A DNA stretch of 24,772 nt from a virus (lineage: Duplodnaviria; Caudoviricetes), in IMG/VR virus record IMGVR_UViG_3300020042_007470, positions 1 to 24,772 of that record; one strand, written 5' to 3'. Position 1 is the stretch's first letter. Each line of letters begins with the position of its first letter. Of the stretch, positions 2,230 to 18,036 are shown in pieces. Below the pieces are notes generated by a model. It saw nothing but the letters and a program-made list of their open reading frames with translations. It searched no databases and was not told the origin of the DNA. The translations under genes were made by a program, and so were the position numbers.

Positions 2230-3571
2230 TCTTCCGGCACTCACGCTTGAAGATCGCCAGGCTGAGGCTGTCAAACTTATGGTTGCTGAACCTACCAGAG
2301 CTGCTTTGAATGCATCTCTTATGGGAACTGGTAAAACTTTGATGGCTGTGGAAGTGGCTAAGAAGATCGAGGCCGACACGATCCTTGTGGTGGGGCCGCT
2401 GAATACTTTTTGGGGTTGGTGGGATACGATCCAACGTCAGAATGATTACAAGCAAACTATCTCGAAGATCAACTCAACCAAAGAGGGACGCGCAGCTTAT
2501 GAGAATTTGAAAGCTGGCAAGCCTGGTTGGTATTTTGTGGGTCGCGAATATTTCAGAACTAAGGAATGGTTCAAGATCATTCCAGATATGGTGATCATTG
2601 ACGAATGCCATTTTGCACAGAACCGGGCTAGCAAGTCTTTCAAAGTTTTGAAAACACTCAAAGCTGGTTACAAGTTGTCGCTCTCTGGCACTCCGTCTGG
2701 TAACAAGTTTGATGGCTTTTGGGCTGTTAGCCGCTACCTGTGGAATGACACTAATGTTGTGGATAAGTCGTATTGGAAGTGGGTTGAGAAGTTTGCTAAG
2801 ACCGCTTATAGTCCTTTTGCTGGTGTGGAGGTTCAGGGTGAGAAGATACCGGGTAATTTTGTAAAGTCGTTACCTTGTTACATTCGCTTAGAACCTAACC
2901 ATAATTTAGAGGTTGTTCAGGAAACTAGGTATGTTGATTTGGTGCCAGCGCAACGCAGGATCTATGACAAGTTTGAGCGTGATCTGGTTGTGTTCTTGGA
3001 AGATAACCCGATGATCGCAGAAGTTCCTATCGCAGCTCGTATTAGGTTGCGTCAGATCACTTTGGCTGTTCCGAGTATTGGTGAGAACGATGAGATCTTT
3101 TTTGCTGATGATGCTGTGTCTACAAAGTTCAAAGCTTTGCAGGAGATCTTGGATGATATCCCTGATGAACCTGTGTTGATCTTGACGGATAGCCAAAAAT
3201 ATGCTAAGATTGTGGCACAACGGCTTGGTAATCAGGCTTTTGAATGGTCTGGCCAGGCAAGTCAAGTAAAGCGCGAGGAGGCCAAAACTGCATTCCTAAA
3301 CTCTGAGCTGCAATACATTGTGGCTGTGATCCCGGCGATCGCTGAGGGTGTGGATGGCTTACAAGATGTGTGCAGCACTATTGTTTGGTTGTCGCACAGT
3401 GATAACAATTTGATGAACCAGCAAGTGGTTGATCGTATTCGTAGGCGTGGACAAAAACAGGTTGTCAAAATTTATGACATTCTTGCTCGCGATACTTATG
3501 ATGAGGGGCAACTCTCGAACCTGGTGGAACGCCAGTTACAGATGAATGCAACACTGAGGAAAGGAGAATAA
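2219..3571 (+). CDS. Superfamily 2 (SNF2/DEAD-like) DNA helicase
   Basis: Motif I MGTGKT, motif II DECH, motif III SGT, motif V AEGVDG, motif VI QVVDRIRRRGQ; start chosen at ATG 2219 (GAGG upstream). Confidence 0.92.
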   Translation: MRSNLPALTLEDRQAEAVKLMVAEPTRAALNASLMGTGKTLMAVEVAKKIEADTILVVGPLNTFWGWWDTIQRQNDYKQTISKINSTKEGRAAYENLKAGKPGWYFVGREYFRTKEWFKIIPDMVIIDECHFAQNRASKSFKVLKTLKAGYKLSLSGTPSGNKFDGFWAVSRYLWNDTNVVDKSYWKWVEKFAKTAYSPFAGVEVQGEKIPGNFVKSLPCYIRLEPNHNLEVVQETRYVDLVPAQRRIYDKFERDLVVFLEDNPMIAEVPIAARIRLRQITLAVPSIGENDEIFFADDAVSTKFKALQEILDDIPDEPVLILTDSQKYAKIVAQRLGNQAFEWSGQASQVKREEAKTAFLNSELQYIVAVIPAIAEGVDGLQDVCSTIVWLSHSDNNLMNQQVVDRIRRRGQKQVVKIYDILARDTYDEGQLSNLVERQLQMNATLRKGE

Positions 3572-4650: not shown

Positions 4651-4750
4651 GAATTTGATGGGCATAACCTTTGCAGGTATCTTTGCCTGGGTTTTGATTT
4701 GGATAGCTTGCGCTTTCTTTTATCTGATTGCTTTGGTGATCAGTGCTTAA
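4634..4750 (+). CDS. 38-aa single-pass membrane peptide (not in ORF track)
   Basis: AGGAGG RBS; MKEFFRNLMGITFAGIFAWVLIWIACAFFYLIALVISA*. Confidence 0.7.
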   Translation: MKEFFRNLMGITFAGIFAWVLIWIACAFFYLIALVISA

Positions 4751-5309
4751 GATTGGTAGTTTGTTTAGTGGTTATGGCGGTTTAGATATTGCAGCTGAGA
4801 AGATCACTGGTGGTAAAGTTGTTTGGCATTGCGAATGGGAAGATGCTCCGAGTAAGATCTTGGAACATAACTTTCCGGGTGTGCCAAATTATAAAGATGT
4901 TACAAAGATTGACTTCACCCAGGTGGAGGCGGTTGATGTTTTGACTGGTGGGTTTCCTTGTCAAGACTTATCGTTAGCTGGCAAACGTGCTGGCTTAGAG
5001 GATGGAACAAGAAGTGGTTTGTGGTCTGAGTTTGCGAGAGCGATCGAAGAGTTGCAACCTAGGCTTGTAATTATTGAGAATGTTAGGGGTTTACTTAGTG
5101 CCAAAGCAAATAATGGAATGGAATACAGCGAAGAAGATTTGGCAGCGTTCAGAGGAAAACCTCCTCTCAGAGCCCTTGGTGCCGTTCTTGGGGACTTGGC
5201 CGATCTTGGGTATGATGCAAGATGGCAAGGTGTTCGAGCTGCAGATGCCGGTGCGCCACACAATCGCTTCAGAGTCTTCATCGTTGCTACGCACACCAAG
5301 CGTAACTGA
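4743..5309 (+). CDS. C5-cytosine DNA methyltransferase, N-terminal subunit (motifs I-VIII)
   Basis: SLFSGYGG (I), GFPCQ (IV, catalytic Cys), ENV (VI), HNRFRVF (VIII); stops before the TRD and motifs IX-X. Confidence 0.9.
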   Translation: MLKIGSLFSGYGGLDIAAEKITGGKVVWHCEWEDAPSKILEHNFPGVPNYKDVTKIDFTQVEAVDVLTGGFPCQDLSLAGKRAGLEDGTRSGLWSEFARAIEELQPRLVIIENVRGLLSAKANNGMEYSEEDLAAFRGKPPLRALGAVLGDLADLGYDARWQGVRAADAGAPHNRFRVFIVATHTKRN

Positions 5310-6048
5310 TTCGACTGGTGGCGCGATTAGCGAGAAGCAAGCTATTGAGCGCGGCCGTATGTTGAAGCTGGCAGATCAGTCAGCTACTTTGGCTTTTTAT
5401 AATGGCTTGAAAGTTTCGCCATCGATCGAAGCATCTTTGTTGCCTACGCCGTTGTCGCGTGATCATAAAGAGGGATATAACCCGCACTATCGCGATGGTG
5501 TTTTGCAAACCGATAACGTTCCGCGTGCTGTGATGCACAGTGGGGAAGTTACTGAACTTAGTTGGGGCCGCTATGAACCTGCGATCCGCCGTTGGGAAGA
5601 AGTTACTGGTCGTAAAGCACCAGCAGCTACACGACCTGATGGTAGGGATGGCGCTCATAGATTGAACCCGGAGCTGGCGGAATGGATGATGGGGCTTGAG
5701 CCTGGTTGGATCACAGGCGCAGGGTTGACAAGAACAGATGAACTAAAAGCTTGTGGTAACGGTGTTGTGCCTCAGCAAGCAGAGTTGGCTTTAGCGCAGC
5801 TTTTGGATGGGGTAGATTTATCTTTTGAAGTAAACTATCCTTTGCTTCCAACACCAACTTTGAGAGATCAAAAAGAGGGAAAGAATCTTAGGAAGATCGC
5901 AATTGATGCTTTGAAGAATGGTAGCAACAGGGGCATTGGCCTGAATCATTTGACTGAAGCTATTGGTGTCGATTGGGAAGAGGGCGAAAGTTTTTCATTT
6001 GTTGATGGAAAGCTAATCAAAAATAGATTGGTAGGAAATGATGAATGA
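5113..6048 (+). CDS. C5-cytosine DNA methyltransferase, C-terminal subunit (variable region + motifs IX-X)
   Basis: RLNPELAEWMMG (IX) and LKACGNGVVPQQA (X); +1 frame relative to the upstream ORF; first ATG at 5113, true start uncertain. Confidence 0.8.
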   Translation: MEWNTAKKIWQRSEENLLSEPLVPFLGTWPILGMMQDGKVFELQMPVRHTIASESSSLLRTPSVTDSTGGAISEKQAIERGRMLKLADQSATLAFYNGLKVSPSIEASLLPTPLSRDHKEGYNPHYRDGVLQTDNVPRAVMHSGEVTELSWGRYEPAIRRWEEVTGRKAPAATRPDGRDGAHRLNPELAEWMMGLEPGWITGAGLTRTDELKACGNGVVPQQAELALAQLLDGVDLSFEVNYPLLPTPTLRDQKEGKNLRKIAIDALKNGSNRGIGLNHLTEAIGVDWEEGESFSFVDGKLIKNRLVGNDE

Positions 6049-6262: not shown

Positions 6263-6773
6263 GTGGGAAGCTGCAGGGAATCATAACCCTTGGGGCAAGA
6301 AGCGTAAACGTGGATCTCATTGTTCGAAAGGGCATGAGTTCACTGAGGAAAACACTTTTGTTAGGCCGTATGATCGTGCCAGGGTGTGCAGGGAATGCCG
6401 TAAAGAGTATGCCCGGAAGAAGTATCAAGAGAACAAAAGCAAAGCGATTCAGCAACCAAAGCTGAAGAAGACTAAAGAGATTGATATAAGTTATTTGATA
6501 TCAACTGATCCGAATGTCAGAGCTTTGTGGTATAATCTTCAAACAAGTATGAAAGATGTTATCACTCCTTGTCAGGAGAACGAAGACAATCACATGCTTT
6601 ATAGTGGTGATCAAACACACACGATCACACCAGAGGCAGCTGAGCTTTTATGTCATGGCTGCCCGATCATAATGGAATGTTATCAATACGCTAATGCGGC
6701 TGACGAAAGTTGGGGTATTTGGGGTGGGGTTAACTTTAGTAAGGAGGAACTAATAGATGTTGACAAACAATGA
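6249..6773 (+). CDS. whiB: Zn-finger::WhiB-family protein
   Basis: N-terminal HCSKGH...ENT...RVCREC finger; C-terminal PC...LCHGCPIIMEC...GIWGG WhiB domain. Confidence 0.85.
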   Translation: MTQYEWEAAGNHNPWGKKRKRGSHCSKGHEFTEENTFVRPYDRARVCRECRKEYARKKYQENKSKAIQQPKLKKTKEIDISYLISTDPNVRALWYNLQTSMKDVITPCQENEDNHMLYSGDQTHTITPEAAELLCHGCPIIMECYQYANAADESWGIWGGVNFSKEELIDVDKQ

Positions 6774-7455
6774 TGTAAAAGAGTTGACGGTTGATCTGTT
6801 TAAGCAGCGCTCGGACCGGGACAAGCAACACAAGGTGGGTGCCAGTAACATTAGTAACCCTTGCACCAAACACCTTGCGCACGATCTTCTGGGCACACCA
6901 GAGGCTGAAAGTAAGTATTGGATGGGTGGCAAAATTGGAACTGCCATTCACAGCTTTTTGGAGTCTGCGATTGAGGCTTCTGATAGTAGCGTATTTGATG
7001 GATGCATTGTGGAAGAAAAGATCGTTCTGGGGGAAATTCCTGGATATGGTGTTGTTAGCAGTAAGCCTGATCTTGTTCTACCTAACAGTAACCATCTGAT
7101 CGACTGGAAGACTACCAGCCGCGCTAAGGTTAAGAAGCTGCAGAACCTTGTTGATGGAATCAAAGAAGACGCTGACAGCTTGTATACGATCCAAAAGTAT
7201 GTTGGTCAAGCGCAGCTGTATGCTTGGGGTTTGAACCAGGCCGGCACCCAGATTGATCGATCAACACTTGTGTTTATTAATCGTGATGGAACGTATGAGA
7301 ACGATATCTGGACTTACACGTTTGATTATGATGAATCAATTGCTCTAGCTTTGTGGAATCGTGTCACAGCCCTGTGGTATGATCTTCAAGATGGAGTTCA
7401 CCCGGATAGTTATCCAAATGATCCACAATGTTTTAAATGCTCAATTGGTATTTAG
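6757..7455 (+). CDS. Cas4-like PD-(D/E)XK exonuclease
   Basis: AAGGAGG RBS; GASNISNPC, GTAIH, KPDL...IDWKT, QAQLY and C-terminal CFKC. Confidence 0.88.
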   Translation: MLTNNDVKELTVDLFKQRSDRDKQHKVGASNISNPCTKHLAHDLLGTPEAESKYWMGGKIGTAIHSFLESAIEASDSSVFDGCIVEEKIVLGEIPGYGVVSSKPDLVLPNSNHLIDWKTTSRAKVKKLQNLVDGIKEDADSLYTIQKYVGQAQLYAWGLNQAGTQIDRSTLVFINRDGTYENDIWTYTFDYDESIALALWNRVTALWYDLQDGVHPDSYPNDPQCFKCSIGI

Positions 7456-7471
7456 ACACACCTGCACAGAT

Positions 7472-7501
7472 TTGGTATTAAGTATAAATGTGTGCTATAA
7501 T
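7472..7501 (+). promoter_or_regulatory. Sigma-A type promoter for the ATPase-SSB-RNA-primase unit
   Basis: TTGGTA (7472-7477), 18 bp, extended -10 TGcTATAAT (7496-7501) in an AT-rich intergenic gap; GGAGG RBS at 7520. Confidence 0.75.
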
Positions 7502-7530
7502 GTAAAAACACAAACGAACGGAGGAAACAA

Positions 7531-8271
7531 ATGACTACAAATAATAAGACTGACTTTCCTGCTTTCAGCTTTCAAAAGCTGATTCACAAAGCGGAAGTTC
7601 TGAACAAACCAAAAAGCATTTTGCTTTTTGCTGACCCAGGTAAAGGTAAGACTTGGCTTGCAGCTTCGATCTCGGAGCTTGCAGAATACAGCCCGGTTCT
7701 ACTGATCGATGCAGAGGGTGGCGCATCTGCTATCGCTCGTGACTGGAAGAACGTTGACGTTGTTAGCGTAACCACACACGAGGGCTTTGTAAAAGTTATC
7801 GAAGAGCTGCTGATCAACCAAGGTCACTACAAATCGGTTATCATCGACACTCTTGGTGTTGTGATGGATCGTGCAGAAAAGTTCTTTGGTGAAAAGCCTG
7901 AGAACCAGAACAACAAGTTCGGTAAATGGGGCGACCTAAAGAACTGGGCTAACGGAGTATTCCGCAGCCTACATGGTGCATCGTTTACCTCAATCCTAAT
8001 CGCCCACGCATTGGATGAAAAAGATGATAACACTGGAGCTATCAAGACGACAGCAATGTTGCCTGGATCGTTCAAGTCCACACTGCCAAGCATTCCAGAC
8101 ATTGTTGGATACCTTGCAGTTGAGCAGACCGAGGATGGCCCACAGCGTGTGCTAATCACTGGCAGCTCAGACCGCCTAGTAACAAAAAACCGATTTGGTC
8201 TTCCACCGAAGATCTATCAACCATCGATGAAAAAGATCATCGATCTTATCAACCAAGGAGGTAAAGAATAA
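7531..8271 (+). CDS. AAA_24 / Sak4-like ATPase (putative single-strand annealing recombinase)
   Basis: Walker A ADPGKGKT, IDAEGG, Walker B VIIDT, IAH, KNR motifs; sits between exonuclease and SSB. Confidence 0.85.
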   Translation: MTTNNKTDFPAFSFQKLIHKAEVLNKPKSILLFADPGKGKTWLAASISELAEYSPVLLIDAEGGASAIARDWKNVDVVSVTTHEGFVKVIEELLINQGHYKSVIIDTLGVVMDRAEKFFGEKPENQNNKFGKWGDLKNWANGVFRSLHGASFTSILIAHALDEKDDNTGAIKTTAMLPGSFKSTLPSIPDIVGYLAVEQTEDGPQRVLITGSSDRLVTKNRFGLPPKIYQPSMKKIIDLINQGGKE

Positions 8272-8747
8272 TGACTAACATTTCATTTAACATTACAGAA
8301 GAGGCTCTAGCAAGTTCGGGAGGATCTTACGATCCAGTTCCTGCTGGCAGCTACAACGCAACAATCTTCAACATTGAGTCAGAGCAGGTGAAGTCTGGCC
8401 CAAACGAGGGTAAGCCTCGTTTCAACGTGCAGTTCCGTCTAACCGGGGACAAGGTGGATAACCGCCGCGTCTTCAGCTATGTTCCACTCTATGTAGCAAA
8501 CGATTTCTGGAAGACCCAGGCTTTCTTCAAGTCGCTTGGTTTCGACATGAAGTCAGGTAAGTTCACTGTTCCAGAAGTGGCTGACCTACTGGGCAAGTCG
8601 ATCGGGGTTCGTGTCAAGATTGGCACAGACCAGAACGGCCAGCCTCGTAACGAAGTCGGTGGCTTTGATGCACCGGCACCTGAGAGTGCAGCTTCGTTGC
8701 TTGAGTCGATGGGTGCTAAGCCTATTGACACGAGCGACCTCCTCTAA
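8271..8747 (+). CDS. ssb: DUF669-like single-stranded DNA-binding protein
   Basis: YDPVPAGSYNATI..KSG..G...NRRVF pattern, acidic C-terminal tail, typical synteny with the ATPase. Confidence 0.8.
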   Translation: MTNISFNITEEALASSGGSYDPVPAGSYNATIFNIESEQVKSGPNEGKPRFNVQFRLTGDKVDNRRVFSYVPLYVANDFWKTQAFFKSLGFDMKSGKFTVPEVADLLGKSIGVRVKIGTDQNGQPRNEVGGFDAPAPESAASLLESMGAKPIDTSDLL

Positions 8748-8753
8748 ATGGGC

Positions 8754-8781
8754 AATCCTGAACATGATTTAAAACTGTTCA
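8754..8781 (+). ncRNA. Predicted compact H-type RNA pseudoknot
   Basis: S1 AATC(8754-57)/GATT(8766-69); S2 TGAACA(8759-64)/TGTTCA(8776-81); loops C, T and TAAAAC. Confidence 0.5.
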
Positions 8782-8784
8782 CAA

Positions 8785-8864
8785 GCCCTGCATGGCTGAC
8801 GCAAACATCTCCTTGTTGTCTCCTCCTCCTTGTAGCGAATGTGGTTCGATTCCACATCAGGGCA
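8785..8864 (+). ncRNA. tRNA-like RNA without an anticodon arm, with a pyrimidine-rich anti-SD loop
   Basis: Acceptor GCCCTG/CAGGGC + A; canonical T-arm TGTGG-TTCGATT-CCACA; central stem CGCaaACA/TGTaGCG closing loop TCTCCTTGTTGTCTCCTCCTCCT. Confidence 0.7.
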
Positions 8865-8868
8865 CAAT

Positions 8869-8941
8869 GCCTCAATAGCTCATCTGGTAGAGCAACGCAC
8901 TTGTAATGCGTAGGTGGCGGGTTCAAGTCCTGCTTGAGGCT
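8869..8941 (+). tRNA. tRNA-Thr(UGU)
   Basis: Acceptor GCCTCAA/TTGAGGC, D-arm GCTC/GAGC, anticodon arm ACGCA-CTTGTAA-TGCGT, T-arm GCGGG-TTCAAGT-CCTGC; CCA not encoded. Confidence 0.95.
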
Positions 8942-8944
8942 CAA

Positions 8945-9003
8945 GGCAAGGAAGTGCGACACACTGTGTCGAAGTATTGGGACAACCAGGCGGAAACCTT
9001 GCC
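8945..9003 (+). ncRNA. Structured inter-tRNA spacer (predicted three-way junction)
   Basis: Closing stem GGCAAGG/CCTTGCC; hairpins CGACAC-act-GTGTCG and TGG-gacaa-CCA. Confidence 0.4.
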
Positions 9004-9007
9004 CCTT

Positions 9008-9080
9008 TGGGGTATAGCTCAGCTGGCAGAGCGTTCGACCGTTAATCGAAATGTCGCAGGTTCGATCCCTGCTGCCCCAG
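9008..9080 (+). tRNA. tRNA-Asn(GUU) with C at position 33
   Basis: Acceptor TGGGGTA/TGCCCCA + G73, D-arm GCTC/GAGC, anticodon arm TTCGA-CCGTTAA-TCGAA, T-arm GCAGG-TTCGATC-CCTGC. Confidence 0.92.
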
Positions 9081-9113
9081 CAACATAGGAGAATTTTATC
9101 TAAAGGAGGATAT

Positions 9114-11309
9114 ATGAAAACAGCAGATTTCTTTTCTGCGATCTACGGCGATGCTCGTGGACTTGCAACCATCGTAACCAAAGGTGCATCAGGCGATCTT
9201 ACGGAACAAAAGTTCTTTGAATACCCTGAGCAGCTAGAGGCCATGATCGCGCACTGCAACATTTACGCTCGCGAAGACATTTACTATTCCCCAATCCTTT
9301 TCAACTCGCCTCGCCGCATTAAAGAGAACGCAAAAACCGTTCACGTTGTTTACGCCGATGCCGATACTTGCGCCCCAGAAAACTTTATTGTCGAACCATC
9401 GATCTCTGTGCAAACAAGCCACGATCGTTGGCACACTTACTGGATCCTTGATGCTGAAACCGATCCACAAGATGTTGCCCTGCTAGCCAAGAAGATTGCT
9501 TACGCACACTCACACCAGGGTTGCGACAAGTCTGGCTGGAATACTACCAAGCTACTTCGTGTGCCAAACTCGGTGAACTGTAAGCGCGAAGACAAGTTTA
9601 CAGTAACCGCCACAAGTAACGGCGCAATTTACACAATGGATGACCTGACATTGCATTACGGCGATGTTCAGGTCGAGCCGATCCGGGAACTATCTTTAGA
9701 TGCTCTCCCGGCTGGCTGGCCAGATCTTATGAAGAGCATGGCTAAAGTGAAAAGTAGCCCAGAAGTTTTGTCGCTTTACAAAGATCAGCCACCAGTGAAC
9801 TCAGACTGGTCTAAGCTGCTTTGGAAACTAGAGTTAGCTTTATTTCAGCAAGGTTTGACGCAGGAAGAAGTGTTTGTTGTTTGTCGCACAGCAAAGTGCA
9901 ACAAGTATCACAGCCCTCTGCGGCCTAAGCGTTACGATGCTGATGGTGATCTGTGGCGCGAAGTGCAACGTGCAGCTAAGTCACACCAGATTGATGCAAC
10001 CACACCACAGCTTGCTAGGATTGAACCTGTCGAAACTGTGATCTCGTTACAGCAAGAAAAGGTTGACTTCTTGTCAATAGCCGAAATGAAGATTGTGAAA
10101 AAAGCCCACACCTTTATTGACGACTATGTTGCCTGGGCCGGGTCCAAAACTGACGGTGCTTTGGGATACCAGATCGCCAGTGCGTTTACAGTAATGTCGT
10201 GCGTGTTCTCAGACATTGGTTATGCAATCCCGAAGTATGGTCGCATGGGTTTGAACCTCTGGTTTATGGTGCTAGGTGAAACCACTCTAACTCGTAAATC
10301 AACCAGCCGAAACCTAATGTTGCGGATGATTCGTGAGTATGAGCGGTTCTCAGGTTACCAGATCGATATCGGTTCGGATGCCACACCTGAGGGTATTACA
10401 AACATTTTGGCAGAGCGTGACGGCAAAACTTCTTTGTTGCACCGCGATGAAGTCCAAGGAATGTTCAAAGACTTTATGTCTAAAACATATATGGCTTCAG
10501 CTGCAGAAAGATTTACCGAACTTTATGATGGCCACGTTCCTGTGGTGATCAGGTCCGGTAAAGACAAGAGGCAAACAGAGAGAGCAACAACAAACTTTGT
10601 AATGTATTTGATGGGTATTGGTAGCAAAACCGCCGATGTTCTCACCACCGAATATTTCAAGTCAGGGTTCTTGGCACGTTTCATTTATGTTACAGCTGAC
10701 ACCCCGGAGCGCACACGCGAGATGGAAGATATCCAGCAAGCAGATGAGCAAGAAGTTGTTGTAAAAGATCTTGTCTTAGATGGTTTGGTGAAAGCCCTTT
10801 ACAACTCTGTTGTTTATTGGCAGAAAAAGGGTTCACCAAACCCTCGCCCGGTTCGCATGACTCAAGAAGCATTGGAACGTTTCAACCAATACAAATGGGA
10901 TATGGGAAACTATACAGAGATGCACCCAGACGCTGAATCTATTGAGCCATCGCGTCAGCGACTAGCTTTATCGGTTTGGAAGTGTGCAATCATGCTAGCG
11001 ATGTGTGACCAGTCGGATCAGGTAGAACTCAAGCACTTGCTTGTGGCAATCCATTACTCGGAAGCCTGGTTTATGGATTTGGTTCGTATGGCTAGTGCAA
11101 TCTCGAACTCTGAATGGCAACGCGATGTTGACAACCTTGAAGCATTAGTTATGGATAAGGGTGGCCGAATCCGTTACGAAGAGGCTTACAGGAAGTTTAG
11201 CAACAAGCGTAAACGAGAGTTTGATGAGATGATTCAAGCACTCCAGTCGCAAGCTAGAGTTCAAATTACTATGGAAAATAATAAAACCTATTTGGAGGTG
11301 ATCGGATGA
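9114..11309 (+). CDS. RepB-like DNA primase fused to a DUF3987-like ATPase/helicase domain
   Basis: AAGGAGG RBS before ATG 9114 (the 9051 start lies inside a tRNA); YADAD, QTS...HTYW, LLRVPNSVN primase motifs; GETTLTRKST, DEV, SGFLARF in the C-terminal half. Confidence 0.85.
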   Translation: MKTADFFSAIYGDARGLATIVTKGASGDLTEQKFFEYPEQLEAMIAHCNIYAREDIYYSPILFNSPRRIKENAKTVHVVYADADTCAPENFIVEPSISVQTSHDRWHTYWILDAETDPQDVALLAKKIAYAHSHQGCDKSGWNTTKLLRVPNSVNCKREDKFTVTATSNGAIYTMDDLTLHYGDVQVEPIRELSLDALPAGWPDLMKSMAKVKSSPEVLSLYKDQPPVNSDWSKLLWKLELALFQQGLTQEEVFVVCRTAKCNKYHSPLRPKRYDADGDLWREVQRAAKSHQIDATTPQLARIEPVETVISLQQEKVDFLSIAEMKIVKKAHTFIDDYVAWAGSKTDGALGYQIASAFTVMSCVFSDIGYAIPKYGRMGLNLWFMVLGETTLTRKSTSRNLMLRMIREYERFSGYQIDIGSDATPEGITNILAERDGKTSLLHRDEVQGMFKDFMSKTYMASAAERFTELYDGHVPVVIRSGKDKRQTERATTNFVMYLMGIGSKTADVLTTEYFKSGFLARFIYVTADTPERTREMEDIQQADEQEVVVKDLVLDGLVKALYNSVVYWQKKGSPNPRPVRMTQEALERFNQYKWDMGNYTEMHPDAESIEPSRQRLALSVWKCAIMLAMCDQSDQVELKHLLVAIHYSEAWFMDLVRMASAISNSEWQRDVDNLEALVMDKGGRIRYEEAYRKFSNKRKREFDEMIQALQSQARVQITMENNKTYLEVIG

Positions 11310-16842: not shown

Positions 16843-16881
16843 AGGTCTATTTTATCACACAACCACTAGCCATTGGCTAGT
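16843..16881 (-). promoter_or_regulatory. Candidate leaderless promoter with palindromic operator
   Basis: Minus strand TGaTAAAAT-agacct-ATG with no SD; perfect palindrome ACTAGCCA-T-TGGCTAGT at 16865-16881. Confidence 0.4.
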
Positions 16882-18036
16882 CGCGGAGTCCCATCTTCGA
16901 ATAATGCCAAGACCACCTGTTGCAACTTGGAAAGTTGTTGCAGTAGCAATTGCGGAAGCTGCGCCGTCACCAATAGCATTCCTAGCTGCTACTGTGTAAA
17001 AATATGTTGTTCCAGAAACGACAGAGTTATCGGCATAAGTTACGCCAGTAGTCGGAGTGATGATCGTCACAGGTGAAGACATTGTTGGCGATAAGCTTCT
17101 TTTGATAACGTAAGCAGTTATTGCACTACCACCATTAGAAGCTGGTGCAGTCCAAGACAAAGCCAAACCGTTAGGGTTTTGTGGTGACTGTTGCGCCACA
17201 GCAAAAGCCGTTGGCTGGCCTGGTGCAGTAGCAGAAGATGTAACGGTTATCGCACCAGTCGCAATGTATTGCCCTGTCGTTGAGGCTGCTGTAGCCACAG
17301 CATTTACGGCCGCTATGCGGAAGTAATAAGTTCCGTTAGCCAAGCCAGTCACAACTGTGCTTGTGCCAGTTAAGCCTGTGGTGGTTGTTGCCCCGGTGAA
17401 ACCAGAGTTTGTAGCTCTTTGCAAAGTGTAGCTAGTTACAGATGTTCCACCATCGCTTACAGGGGCAGTCCAAGAAACAGTAACTTGGGACTGTCCCGGA
17501 GTTCCGGAAATACTCAAAGGTGCTGTCGGTAAACTGTAGTAATCAAATGATCCAACAAGGCTGGCGTTAGACTTCAGGGTGGCATCATTGTTAAATGTGG
17601 AGATTGATGTTGAGCTGCTGTGATCACTGAGAACGTTGATCCCAGATTGGGATGTTTCGTCAGCCGAATAATAAACGCTACCCATTCCCGAAACCCAAAA
17701 GCCCATACGAACATTGTCAGTTGTGCTTCTATTAATGAGCGGAAGGGTGCCAGTCAGGGACTTTAACCCTGTGCTAGATGCAGATGAGGCTGCGGCTTCA
17801 GTAAAGTTTGCTGTCTTACCAAGTAAAGAAAAGCCGCTGCTCCAAACACCCAGAGCAACAGTTCGGCTGGCATCTTTACCAGACAAGTTGAGGGCCATCC
17901 GATAAATCTGAATGTAAGGCACTCCGTTAGGATCGGTTGCTGGGTTGATTGTAGTTAGATCCACAAGACATGCAGTTTGCGACCAAGCAACCCAGGCCAC
18001 ATTGTTTGTTGCTACGGCAGAGTTAATTGTCGCCAT
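16855..18036 (-). CDS. Minor tail protein with two fibronectin type III domains
   Basis: VSWTAPVSDGG...YYFRIAAVN and LSWTAPASNGG...YFYTVAARNAIG FN3 repeats; GAGG RBS. Confidence 0.88.
   Translation of the reverse strand: MATINSAVATNNVAWVAWSQTACLVDLTTINPATDPNGVPYIQIYRMALNLSGKDASRTVALGVWSSGFSLLGKTANFTEAAASSASSTGLKSLTGTLPLINRSTTDNVRMGFWVSGMGSVYYSADETSQSGINVLSDHSSSTSISTFNNDATLKSNASLVGSFDYYSLPTAPLSISGTPGQSQVTVSWTAPVSDGGTSVTSYTLQRATNSGFTGATTTTGLTGTSTVVTGLANGTYYFRIAAVNAVATAASTTGQYIATGAITVTSSATAPGQPTAFAVAQQSPQNPNGLALSWTAPASNGGSAITAYVIKRSLSPTMSSPVTIITPTTGVTYADNSVVSGTTYFYTVAARNAIGDGAASAIATATTFQVATGGLGIIRRWDSATSQWLVVV

Follow-up and report, generated by a model that had tools for sequence, protein, structure and literature searches.

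A conserved tRNA-like RNA with a CUCCU loop, preceded by a pseudoknot, in the replication operon of an uncultured phage family

Results

Genomic context

The window (the whole 24,772-nt stretch that was analysed, from IMG/VR record IMGVR_UViG_3300020042_007470) contains a replication operon with the order AAA_24, DUF669, tRNA-like element, two tRNAs, and DUF3987 primase. The features used below are as follows.

6757..7455, + strand: 232-aa ORF; by synteny, in the place of the Cas4-like exonuclease of cultured relatives
7472..7501, + strand: promoter-like site with an extended -10, 5' of the AAA gene
7531..8271, + strand: AAA_24 (Sak4-like) ATPase gene, ribosome-binding site (RBS) at 7520-7530; the syntenic gene in phage Amigo is named Sak4-like
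8271..8747, + strand: DUF669 SSB-like gene, stop 7 nt 5' of the pseudoknot
8754..8781, + strand: H-type pseudoknot (stem 1 8754-8757/8766-8769; stem 2 8759-8764/8776-8781), ending 3 nt 5' of the element
8785..8864, + strand: the element, tRNA-like but with no D stem; it consists of a 6-bp acceptor, a short linker with GG, a central stem-loop, a T arm, and a discriminator A
8785..8790, + strand: acceptor stem, 5' strand (partner 8858-8863), supported by covariation
8794..8795, + strand: conserved GG with a linker of 1-3 nt before it, as parsed in relatives
8808..8830, + strand: pyrimidine loop of 23 nt with CUCCU tracts, closed weakly in the window copy; predicted RBS-pairing guide
8840..8856, + strand: T arm (stem 8840-8844/8852-8856), window loop UUCGAUU; loop UUCRANU in relatives, a pattern that the parser required
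8869..8942, + strand: tRNA-Thr(UGU)
9008..9081, + strand: tRNA-Asn(GUU)
9087..9110, + strand: purine tracts in tandem (9087-9092 and 9102-9110) ahead of the primase start, which can pair with both loop tracts (-16.9 kcal/mol)
9114..11309, + strand: DUF3987 DNA primase gene

The 232-aa ORF had no Pfam match. The promoter-like site is the likely start of the transcript that holds the element, and a TATAAT-like box was present 5' of the AAA gene in 13/21 genomes. Most proteins matching the window primase came from Arthrobacter, Curtobacterium, and Clavibacter phages (36-30% identity); the top match is labelled a Stenotrophomonas phage. Together with two WhiB genes in the window, the matches to actinobacterial phages suggest that actinobacteria are the likely hosts of this uncultured phage family.

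A branched stem lies between tRNA-Thr and tRNA-Asn (8946-9003, z -1.26), and the matching interval of relatives holds several other recurrent hairpin families (L017/L020/L191; L009/L165). Elsewhere in the window, a cytosine methylase ORF is overlapped by a second long ORF in another frame (4743-6048). Part of a fibronectin-like tail protein gene (16855-18036) is repeated on the opposite strand close to where the contig ends (24195-24638), possibly an inversion or an assembly feature.

Structure and detection of the element

A sequence-only reading had described an 80-nt tRNA-like element here, and its 6-bp acceptor, C-U seventh position (C8791/U8857, unpaired), T arm, and discriminator (A8864, with CAA immediately 3') could all be read directly as claimed. 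The linker consists of AUGG (8792-8795) followed by CUGA (8796-8799), the 3-70 pair is C-G, and U8857 is able to pair with A8839 to give a 6+6 stack. An acceptor and a T arm suffice for RNase P; a cut is predicted directly 5' of 8785, and the T loop is the predicted docking site of the linker GG, as it is for G18-G19 in tRNA.

The 23-nt CUCCU-bearing loop was likewise present as described, closed by ACA/UGU and CGC/GCG pairs. Its stem is weak in the window copy, where this fold (-18.4 kcal/mol) competes with a lower-energy alternative that has an 8-nt loop (-20.9 to -22.1 kcal/mol); CUCCU is unpaired in both. Compared with shuffles, the window copy has no excess stability (z -1.34), and single copies are mostly unremarkable (z -1.2 to -3.2), so the argument against a chance origin comes from the relatives that carry the element.

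As the sequence-only reading had expected, standard tools gave no full match. ARAGORN called only tRNA-Thr and tRNA-Asn in the window. Rfam gave no real match on the element, and E <=10 yielded a 17-bit YrlA match on the T arm (threshold 69). Matches to Plastid-ycf2 were rejected as artefacts, as they were antisense to tRNA-like stretches and below threshold.

Conservation across relatives

Protein searches with DUF669 and AAA gathered 112 loci (some contigs twice), of which 7 end too early to be assessed. The element was found 3' of the DUF669 gene in all of the remaining loci (105/105), and within 70 nt of the DUF669 stop in 103/105. The parser gave false positives in 2/1620 shuffled regions, and its one match among 492 window tiles was the element's own tile. 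With pattern-selected loci added, the set comprised 81 distinct sequences, which fall into 47 clusters when grouped at 85% identity. Like a canonical tRNA, these sequences have the T-arm pair G53-C61 (81/81), A73 (78/81), and C74 (81/81), in tallies from a parser that presupposed the GG and the T-loop pattern and took in L011 with a wrong 5' end. The D stem-loop and 7-nt anticodon loop of a canonical tRNA (RF00005) are absent; ARAGORN called 0/81, and RF00005 had no match on the window element. The 3' acceptor strand has 7 nt in 65 sequences and 6 nt in 16. That this length is fixed even where pairs 6 and 7 are broken, as they often are, fits the expected processing ruler.

Covariation was examined in an alignment of 45 sequences to a model (R1) from related loci, a check that the sequence-only reading had proposed. 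In this alignment 86.2% of cells were paired, compared with 62.0% in shuffled sequences, and two-sided changes occurred in 16/17 pairs. By helix, 92.5% of cells were paired in the acceptor, 99.6% in the T stem, and 68.7% in the central stem, the alignment having been fitted to the same structure. The acceptor and T stems covary strongly and the central stem more weakly. The element is a real, conserved, unannotated phage RNA family.

These data also bear on whether the element is a decayed tRNA gene. Its 5' start resembles the tRNA-Leu that phage Jojan60 carries in this place, and an origin from a tRNA is plausible from this sequence similarity. Against decay as the present state, no close relative has an ordinary tRNA at this position and the stems are kept by compensatory change, which rules it out, as the sequence-only reading required. 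We regard a decayed gene as having next to no chance of being correct.

In cellular genomes, a restrictive pattern spanning the pseudoknot junction gave 76 matches, none of which fits model R1. A metagenome scan for near-copies of the window element gave 3 matches; one of them (L348) is without tRNA-like ends and looks like chance similarity in coding DNA. Among contigs from three expression runs, each with a small share of words in common, none spans the element, and neither a transcript of it nor a processed end or CCA addition was seen.

A pseudoknot precedes the element

The pseudoknot at 8754-8781 was missing from the sequence-only account. A pseudoknot was found at this place in 46/47 cluster representatives, as against 32/470 shuffles, with 35 distinct stem combinations. 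It ends 1-7 nt before G1 and occurs in two interchangeable sequence types. The pseudoknot upstream of the element covaries. By eye, the cultured phages Amigo and Molivia have the same pseudoknot before an aberrant tRNA, annotated as tRNA-Gly and with an abnormal anticodon arm (Amigo L034:3075-3152; Molivia L035).

Short pseudoknots near SSB genes are described for STAXI (RF01728; PMC2864571), and ours shares with these its small size and its position adjoining an SSB gene. STAXI pseudoknots are tandem, repeated two or three times, whereas ours is single in the window and is always followed by the tRNA mimic; RF01728 gave no Rfam match for it. A closer layout is that of the vertebrate MALAT1 and MEN-beta transcripts, in which a stabilising 3' structure is followed by a tRNA mimic (mascRNA/menRNA) that RNase P and Z cut, as described in PMC9777231. 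In both cases a protective structure would stand directly 5' of a tRNA mimic. The vertebrate structure is a triple helix, whereas the phage has a pseudoknot, no D hairpin, and a large anti-Shine-Dalgarno (anti-SD) loop, and the mascRNA/menRNA model (RF01684) had no match on the element.

The loop carries a CUCCU core

The sequence-only reading had seen repeats of the anti-SD motif in the loop. Conservation of such a motif was borne out, with CUCCU in the middle of 76/81 elements; the longer CCUCCU that it had named is present in just 32/81, and the conserved core is CUCCU(UU). We take this core to be the portion in common with the 16S tail, and ACCUCC to be the 16S-like flank. Among cluster representatives, 42/47 loops hold CUCCU, whereas shuffled loops averaged 7.1 and never exceeded 15. 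The five loops without it comprise L191 (where a second element carries CUCCU), L195 (a near variant), and one lineage in which the scaffold is kept and CUCCU is absent (L027, L028, L032). This lineage has the shortest gap between element and primase start (11-14 nt).

A tRNA-like search pattern that left the loop unspecified gave 88 matches, 52 of them inside the AAA-DUF669-primase gene context. Outside that context CUCCU occurred in 0/36 matches, a few of which are true tRNAs. The CUCCU loop is thus specific to the family's gene context and far above what composition would give.

These counts bear on the reading that the pseudoknot and tRNA mimic are a processing or stabilising signal only, marking where RNase P would cut to end the SSB mRNA, with a loop that is incidental or prevents misfolding. 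The lineage without CUCCU fits such a signal, as do similar CUCCU-less scaffolds, which are common in other phages. The 42 observed against 7.1 expected, the complete lack of CUCCU elsewhere, and a loop fitted to the phage's own RBSs (below) speak against it, and we consider it unlikely.

Pairing of the loop with the phage's own ribosome-binding sites

The pairing tests used gene starts picked by a generic Shine-Dalgarno (SD) score, and, since the genomes are related, all of their p values overstate independence. In the lineage test (six tests in all), each loop was compared against RBSs of its own and of other lineages, leaving out six visibly mis-called starts and loops without CUCC. The primase RBS matched its own loop, with 20/27 lineages positive (p 0.003; by energy 18/27, p 0.02). 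The AAA RBS was not significant across lineages (15/24, p 0.10) and the SSB RBS had no own-match (9/27), leaving primase as the sole one of these three flanking genes with a significant own-match.

Of 21 genomes, whole or partial, the genome test covered 19 (CUCC is absent from the other two), with genes holding AGGA or GGAG, and it measured the own-genome excess in the longest complementary run. The excess was +0.29 nt for the early arm (15/19 genomes, p 0.0001) and +0.65 nt for the replication module (16/19 genomes, p below 0.0001). Across the same 19 genomes it was +0.06 nt for post-primase genes (p 0.27) and -0.03 nt for the structural arm (p 0.68), and neither control, pseudoknot or T arm, showed an effect. 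By duplex energy, the structural arm was weakly own-matched (p 0.037). When lineages with AGAA-style sites were dropped, the replication-module effect was gone (+0.14, p 0.13) and the early-arm effect stayed (p 0.01), though it is small, at 0.2-0.3 nt per gene. The loop fits early and replication RBSs of the same phage better than those of relatives, a small effect that comes partly from a few lineages.

Individual genomes vary. G001 and G002 have perfect matches of 10-12 nt between loop and exonuclease, AAA, and primase RBSs, all in the top four, while the primase RBS ranks low by energy in G003, G005, G007, and G008. In the window, the RBS of the ORF in the exonuclease position was the best loop partner of five RBSs tested (-17.9 kcal/mol). 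The sequence-only reading had singled out a match between 8816-8826 and 7520-7530, the AAA RBS. Its 10/11 pairs are there, but it has no special role, as this RBS is the weakest partner among the four replication RBSs.

That reading had also proposed that SD-led mRNAs would be silenced and leaderless ones spared. AGGAG or GGAGG precedes 133/238 long ORFs on the early strand versus 55/351 on the structural strand, so structural genes are mostly without AGGAG. They carry no leaderless signature, with a -10 box at leaderless distance in 25/350 and also in 25/350 controls, and the part of the proposal that concerned leaderless mRNAs is not supported. As for silencing, loop flanks that fit the phage's own early and replication RBSs point to phage mRNAs and away from general silencing.

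A general host shut-off or ribosome competitor, in which a loop imitating the 16S tail would silence strong-SD mRNAs of every kind, chiefly those of the host, is for this reason improbable, about as much so as a processing signal alone. It would be consistent with a core that the loop has in common with the 16S tail, and structural genes would largely escape it. The 16S-like flank ACCUCC, however, is found in only 2/81 loops and CACCUCC in 0/81, and the flanks track the phage's early RBSs, not its post-primase SD-led genes.

A cis-acting attenuator of primase deserves somewhat more weight, although we still think it rather unlikely. Here the loop of the unprocessed transcript would pair with the primase RBS and hold primase low relative to SSB, at a level set by folding of the tRNA mimic and by cleavage. 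This would account for a significant own-match at the primase RBS alone among the three flanking genes. In 20/28 loci with a primase start within 45 nt, moreover, the nested minimum-energy fold pairs the loop with the leader. A second element copy in the early region of G009 (C1:32270-32343, - strand) has a loop complementary, by eye, to the A/C-rich leader directly behind it. In the window and many relatives, however, the primase start lies 100-800 nt off, past tRNA genes that would be excised, and the loop is still kept; nor does attenuation of primase explain the early-arm match.

Related modules in other phages

We found related modules in several other phages. In mycobacteriophage Fowlmouth, 12 unannotated acceptor-GG-T-arm modules lie among the small genes 40-60 (L238:3770-11100), and 11 model matches were found in phage Cuke (G012). 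In both, most modules have after them a hairpin and the unusual motif GGAUGGA, which occurs 15 times on the coding strand of the Fowlmouth region and 2 times on the opposite strand. Most of the Fowlmouth modules are without a central stem-loop, as a purely processing-related signal would allow; an acceptor and T-arm module seen by eye before primase in Clavibacter phage CN1A and the pseudoknot before an aberrant tRNA in Amigo and Molivia point the same way. The CN1A module is about 50 nt long, unannotated, and has an encoded CCA (L039, about 3435-3470); model R1 gave no score on it.

A strong hairpin precedes the Fowlmouth exonuclease gene (L238:17545-17610). Its loop is complementary over 8-9 nt to 9/41 starts examined, and the same loop recurs in Cuke, on a different stem, and in MrMiyagi (L345:340-405; L346:148-217). 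This conserved loop is complementary to GGAUGGA, the unusual RBS motif of the early genes; the hairpin is not tRNA-shaped and thus favours the model preferred below as an analogue only. A second long hairpin follows it, and in MrMiyagi this holds a T-arm-like motif.

Other structured RNAs were also observed. 3' of its tRNAs, Amigo has one of 155 nt that bears an anti-SD loop (L034, 3237-3395); against 52 annotated starts its best RBS match was 8 nt, nothing special. Curtobacterium phage Yappy has another tRNA-like element in the interval from the DUF669-like gene to tRNA-Leu (L036, about 3283-3380). D-armless scaffolds with other loops occur in unrelated phages (the L043 group with 16 matches, the L051 group with 5, L075, L107, L115, and L047); the L047 scaffold has a C-rich loop, and the one in L075 is near a below-threshold match resembling twister-P1.

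Six family loci carry, by eye, a separate RNA resembling the tRNA-like domain (TLD) of tmRNA, with G3-U70, in the same interval as the element; the L045 copy is uncalled by Rfam. TLD-only RNAs of ~80 nt with G3-U70 were seen before primase in L038 (3886-3968), L009, L010, L041, L045, L079, and L207, and the unannotated copy in Jojan60 has an Rfam tmRNA score of 61.8 bits.

These RNAs bear on the suggestion, made in the sequence-only reading, that the element could be a decoy for SmpB. GAC motifs flanking helix P2 of tmRNA are an SmpB contact. In the element GAC follows the GG in 5/81 sequences and precedes the T stem in 0/81, a G-U pair at 3-70 occurs in 0/81, and there is no tmRNA match on it, which upholds the claim of that reading that it is not a normal tmRNA. 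The stemless GG linker and single central helix do recall the tmRNA TLD and the TLD-only RNA of mycobacteriophage DS6A, described with the same plan of acceptor, stemless GG linker, one helix, and T arm (PMC4131195, PMC11915505), but the element has a linker of 1-3 nt and acceptor pairs 6-7 that are often broken. A separate TLD-like RNA with the missing marks argues further against the element as an SmpB or tmRNA decoy, which we judge very improbable.

Discussion

We found no description of the element in the literature, most subscription papers being beyond the scope of the search. The family may be among the 10,006 uncharacterised candidates of PMC10690425; contig ids and domain names had no match in four supplementary files of that catalogue. 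By analogy, the element would resemble C4 in function, and it resembles MALAT1/mascRNA in layout; it is a member of neither. C4 is an antisense RNA of phages P1 and P7, ~77 nt long, which host RNase P cuts from a longer phage transcript and whose loops occlude an RBS, according to a secondary account (PMC5320573). Like C4, our element has a loop that can pair with RBSs of its own phage and covaries with them (a small effect, partly from a few lineages), and its structure is compatible with the predicted excision by RNase P. It differs in its true T arm, elbow GG, and discriminator, in its one anti-SD loop that fits many RBSs where C4 has an a'/b' pair for one target, and in its location, which is the replication operon rather than the immunity region. 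The C4 covariance model (RF01695) had no match on it.

Other known RNAs share single traits with the element. Cuckoo RNAs of Alphaproteobacteria, as described in PMC4615179, also present an anti-SD motif in hairpin loops with variable stems; they are 2-4 plain adjacent hairpins, each with CCUCCUCCC, whereas the element is a single stem-loop in a tRNA scaffold. The Y RNA YrlA is a tRNA mimic, and that of M. smegmatis is reported to be cut by RNase P and to gain CCA (PMC4201824). The element differs from YrlA (RF02553) in having no D arm and no GNCGAA Ro60 motif (0/81), in addition to the low Rfam score given above, and no Ro60 gene was present among the 16 proteins scanned in the window, which is a partial contig. 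In phage T4, RNAC and RNAD sit in the tRNA cluster. They are small phage RNAs of unknown function (PMC9697503) and are leads by description only.

On balance, our preferred model is that the element is a tRNA mimic, excised by RNase P, that represses the phage's own strong-SD early and replication mRNAs, and that the pseudoknot caps the SSB mRNA; we consider the case for it about evenly balanced. Docking of the linker GG into the T loop would create a tRNA elbow. Host RNase P would then cut the replication-operon transcript at G1, and 3' tRNA-maturation enzymes would trim the other end. With a cut at G1, the pseudoknot would become the protective 3' end of the AAA-SSB mRNA, and SSB output would be uncoupled from that of primase. 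The freed, tRNA-shaped RNA would be stable and accumulate, and its loop would keep 30S subunits off those early, exonuclease, AAA, and primase mRNAs that are led by AGGAG. Such a block would give negative feedback and a shift towards the structural genes, which are mostly without AGGAG. At loci with a primase RBS immediately after the element, this pairing could have a further, cis-acting role ahead of processing. The direction of the effect is assumed, by analogy, to be repression and not protection.

A broader version of this model is more tentative. The element may be a tRNA turned guide RNA, freed by host tRNA maturation, whose loop co-evolves with early RBSs to form an RNA-only timer: translation of early and replication genes would give way to that of structural genes. 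Excision would at the same time leave the SSB mRNA capped by the pseudoknot, in a bacterial parallel to MALAT1/mascRNA processing.

The unannotated RNA family described here is present in every assessable member of the phage group and is missed by standard tRNA and Rfam scans. Since the Fowlmouth and Cuke modules come from phages of M. smegmatis, both the processing step and the idea of targeting early RBSs are testable in a laboratory strain. If the loop works as predicted, the phage programme would be controlled at the level of translation by a tRNA mimic, and this would offer a handle on the old question of what role non-tRNA small RNAs play in phage tRNA regions.
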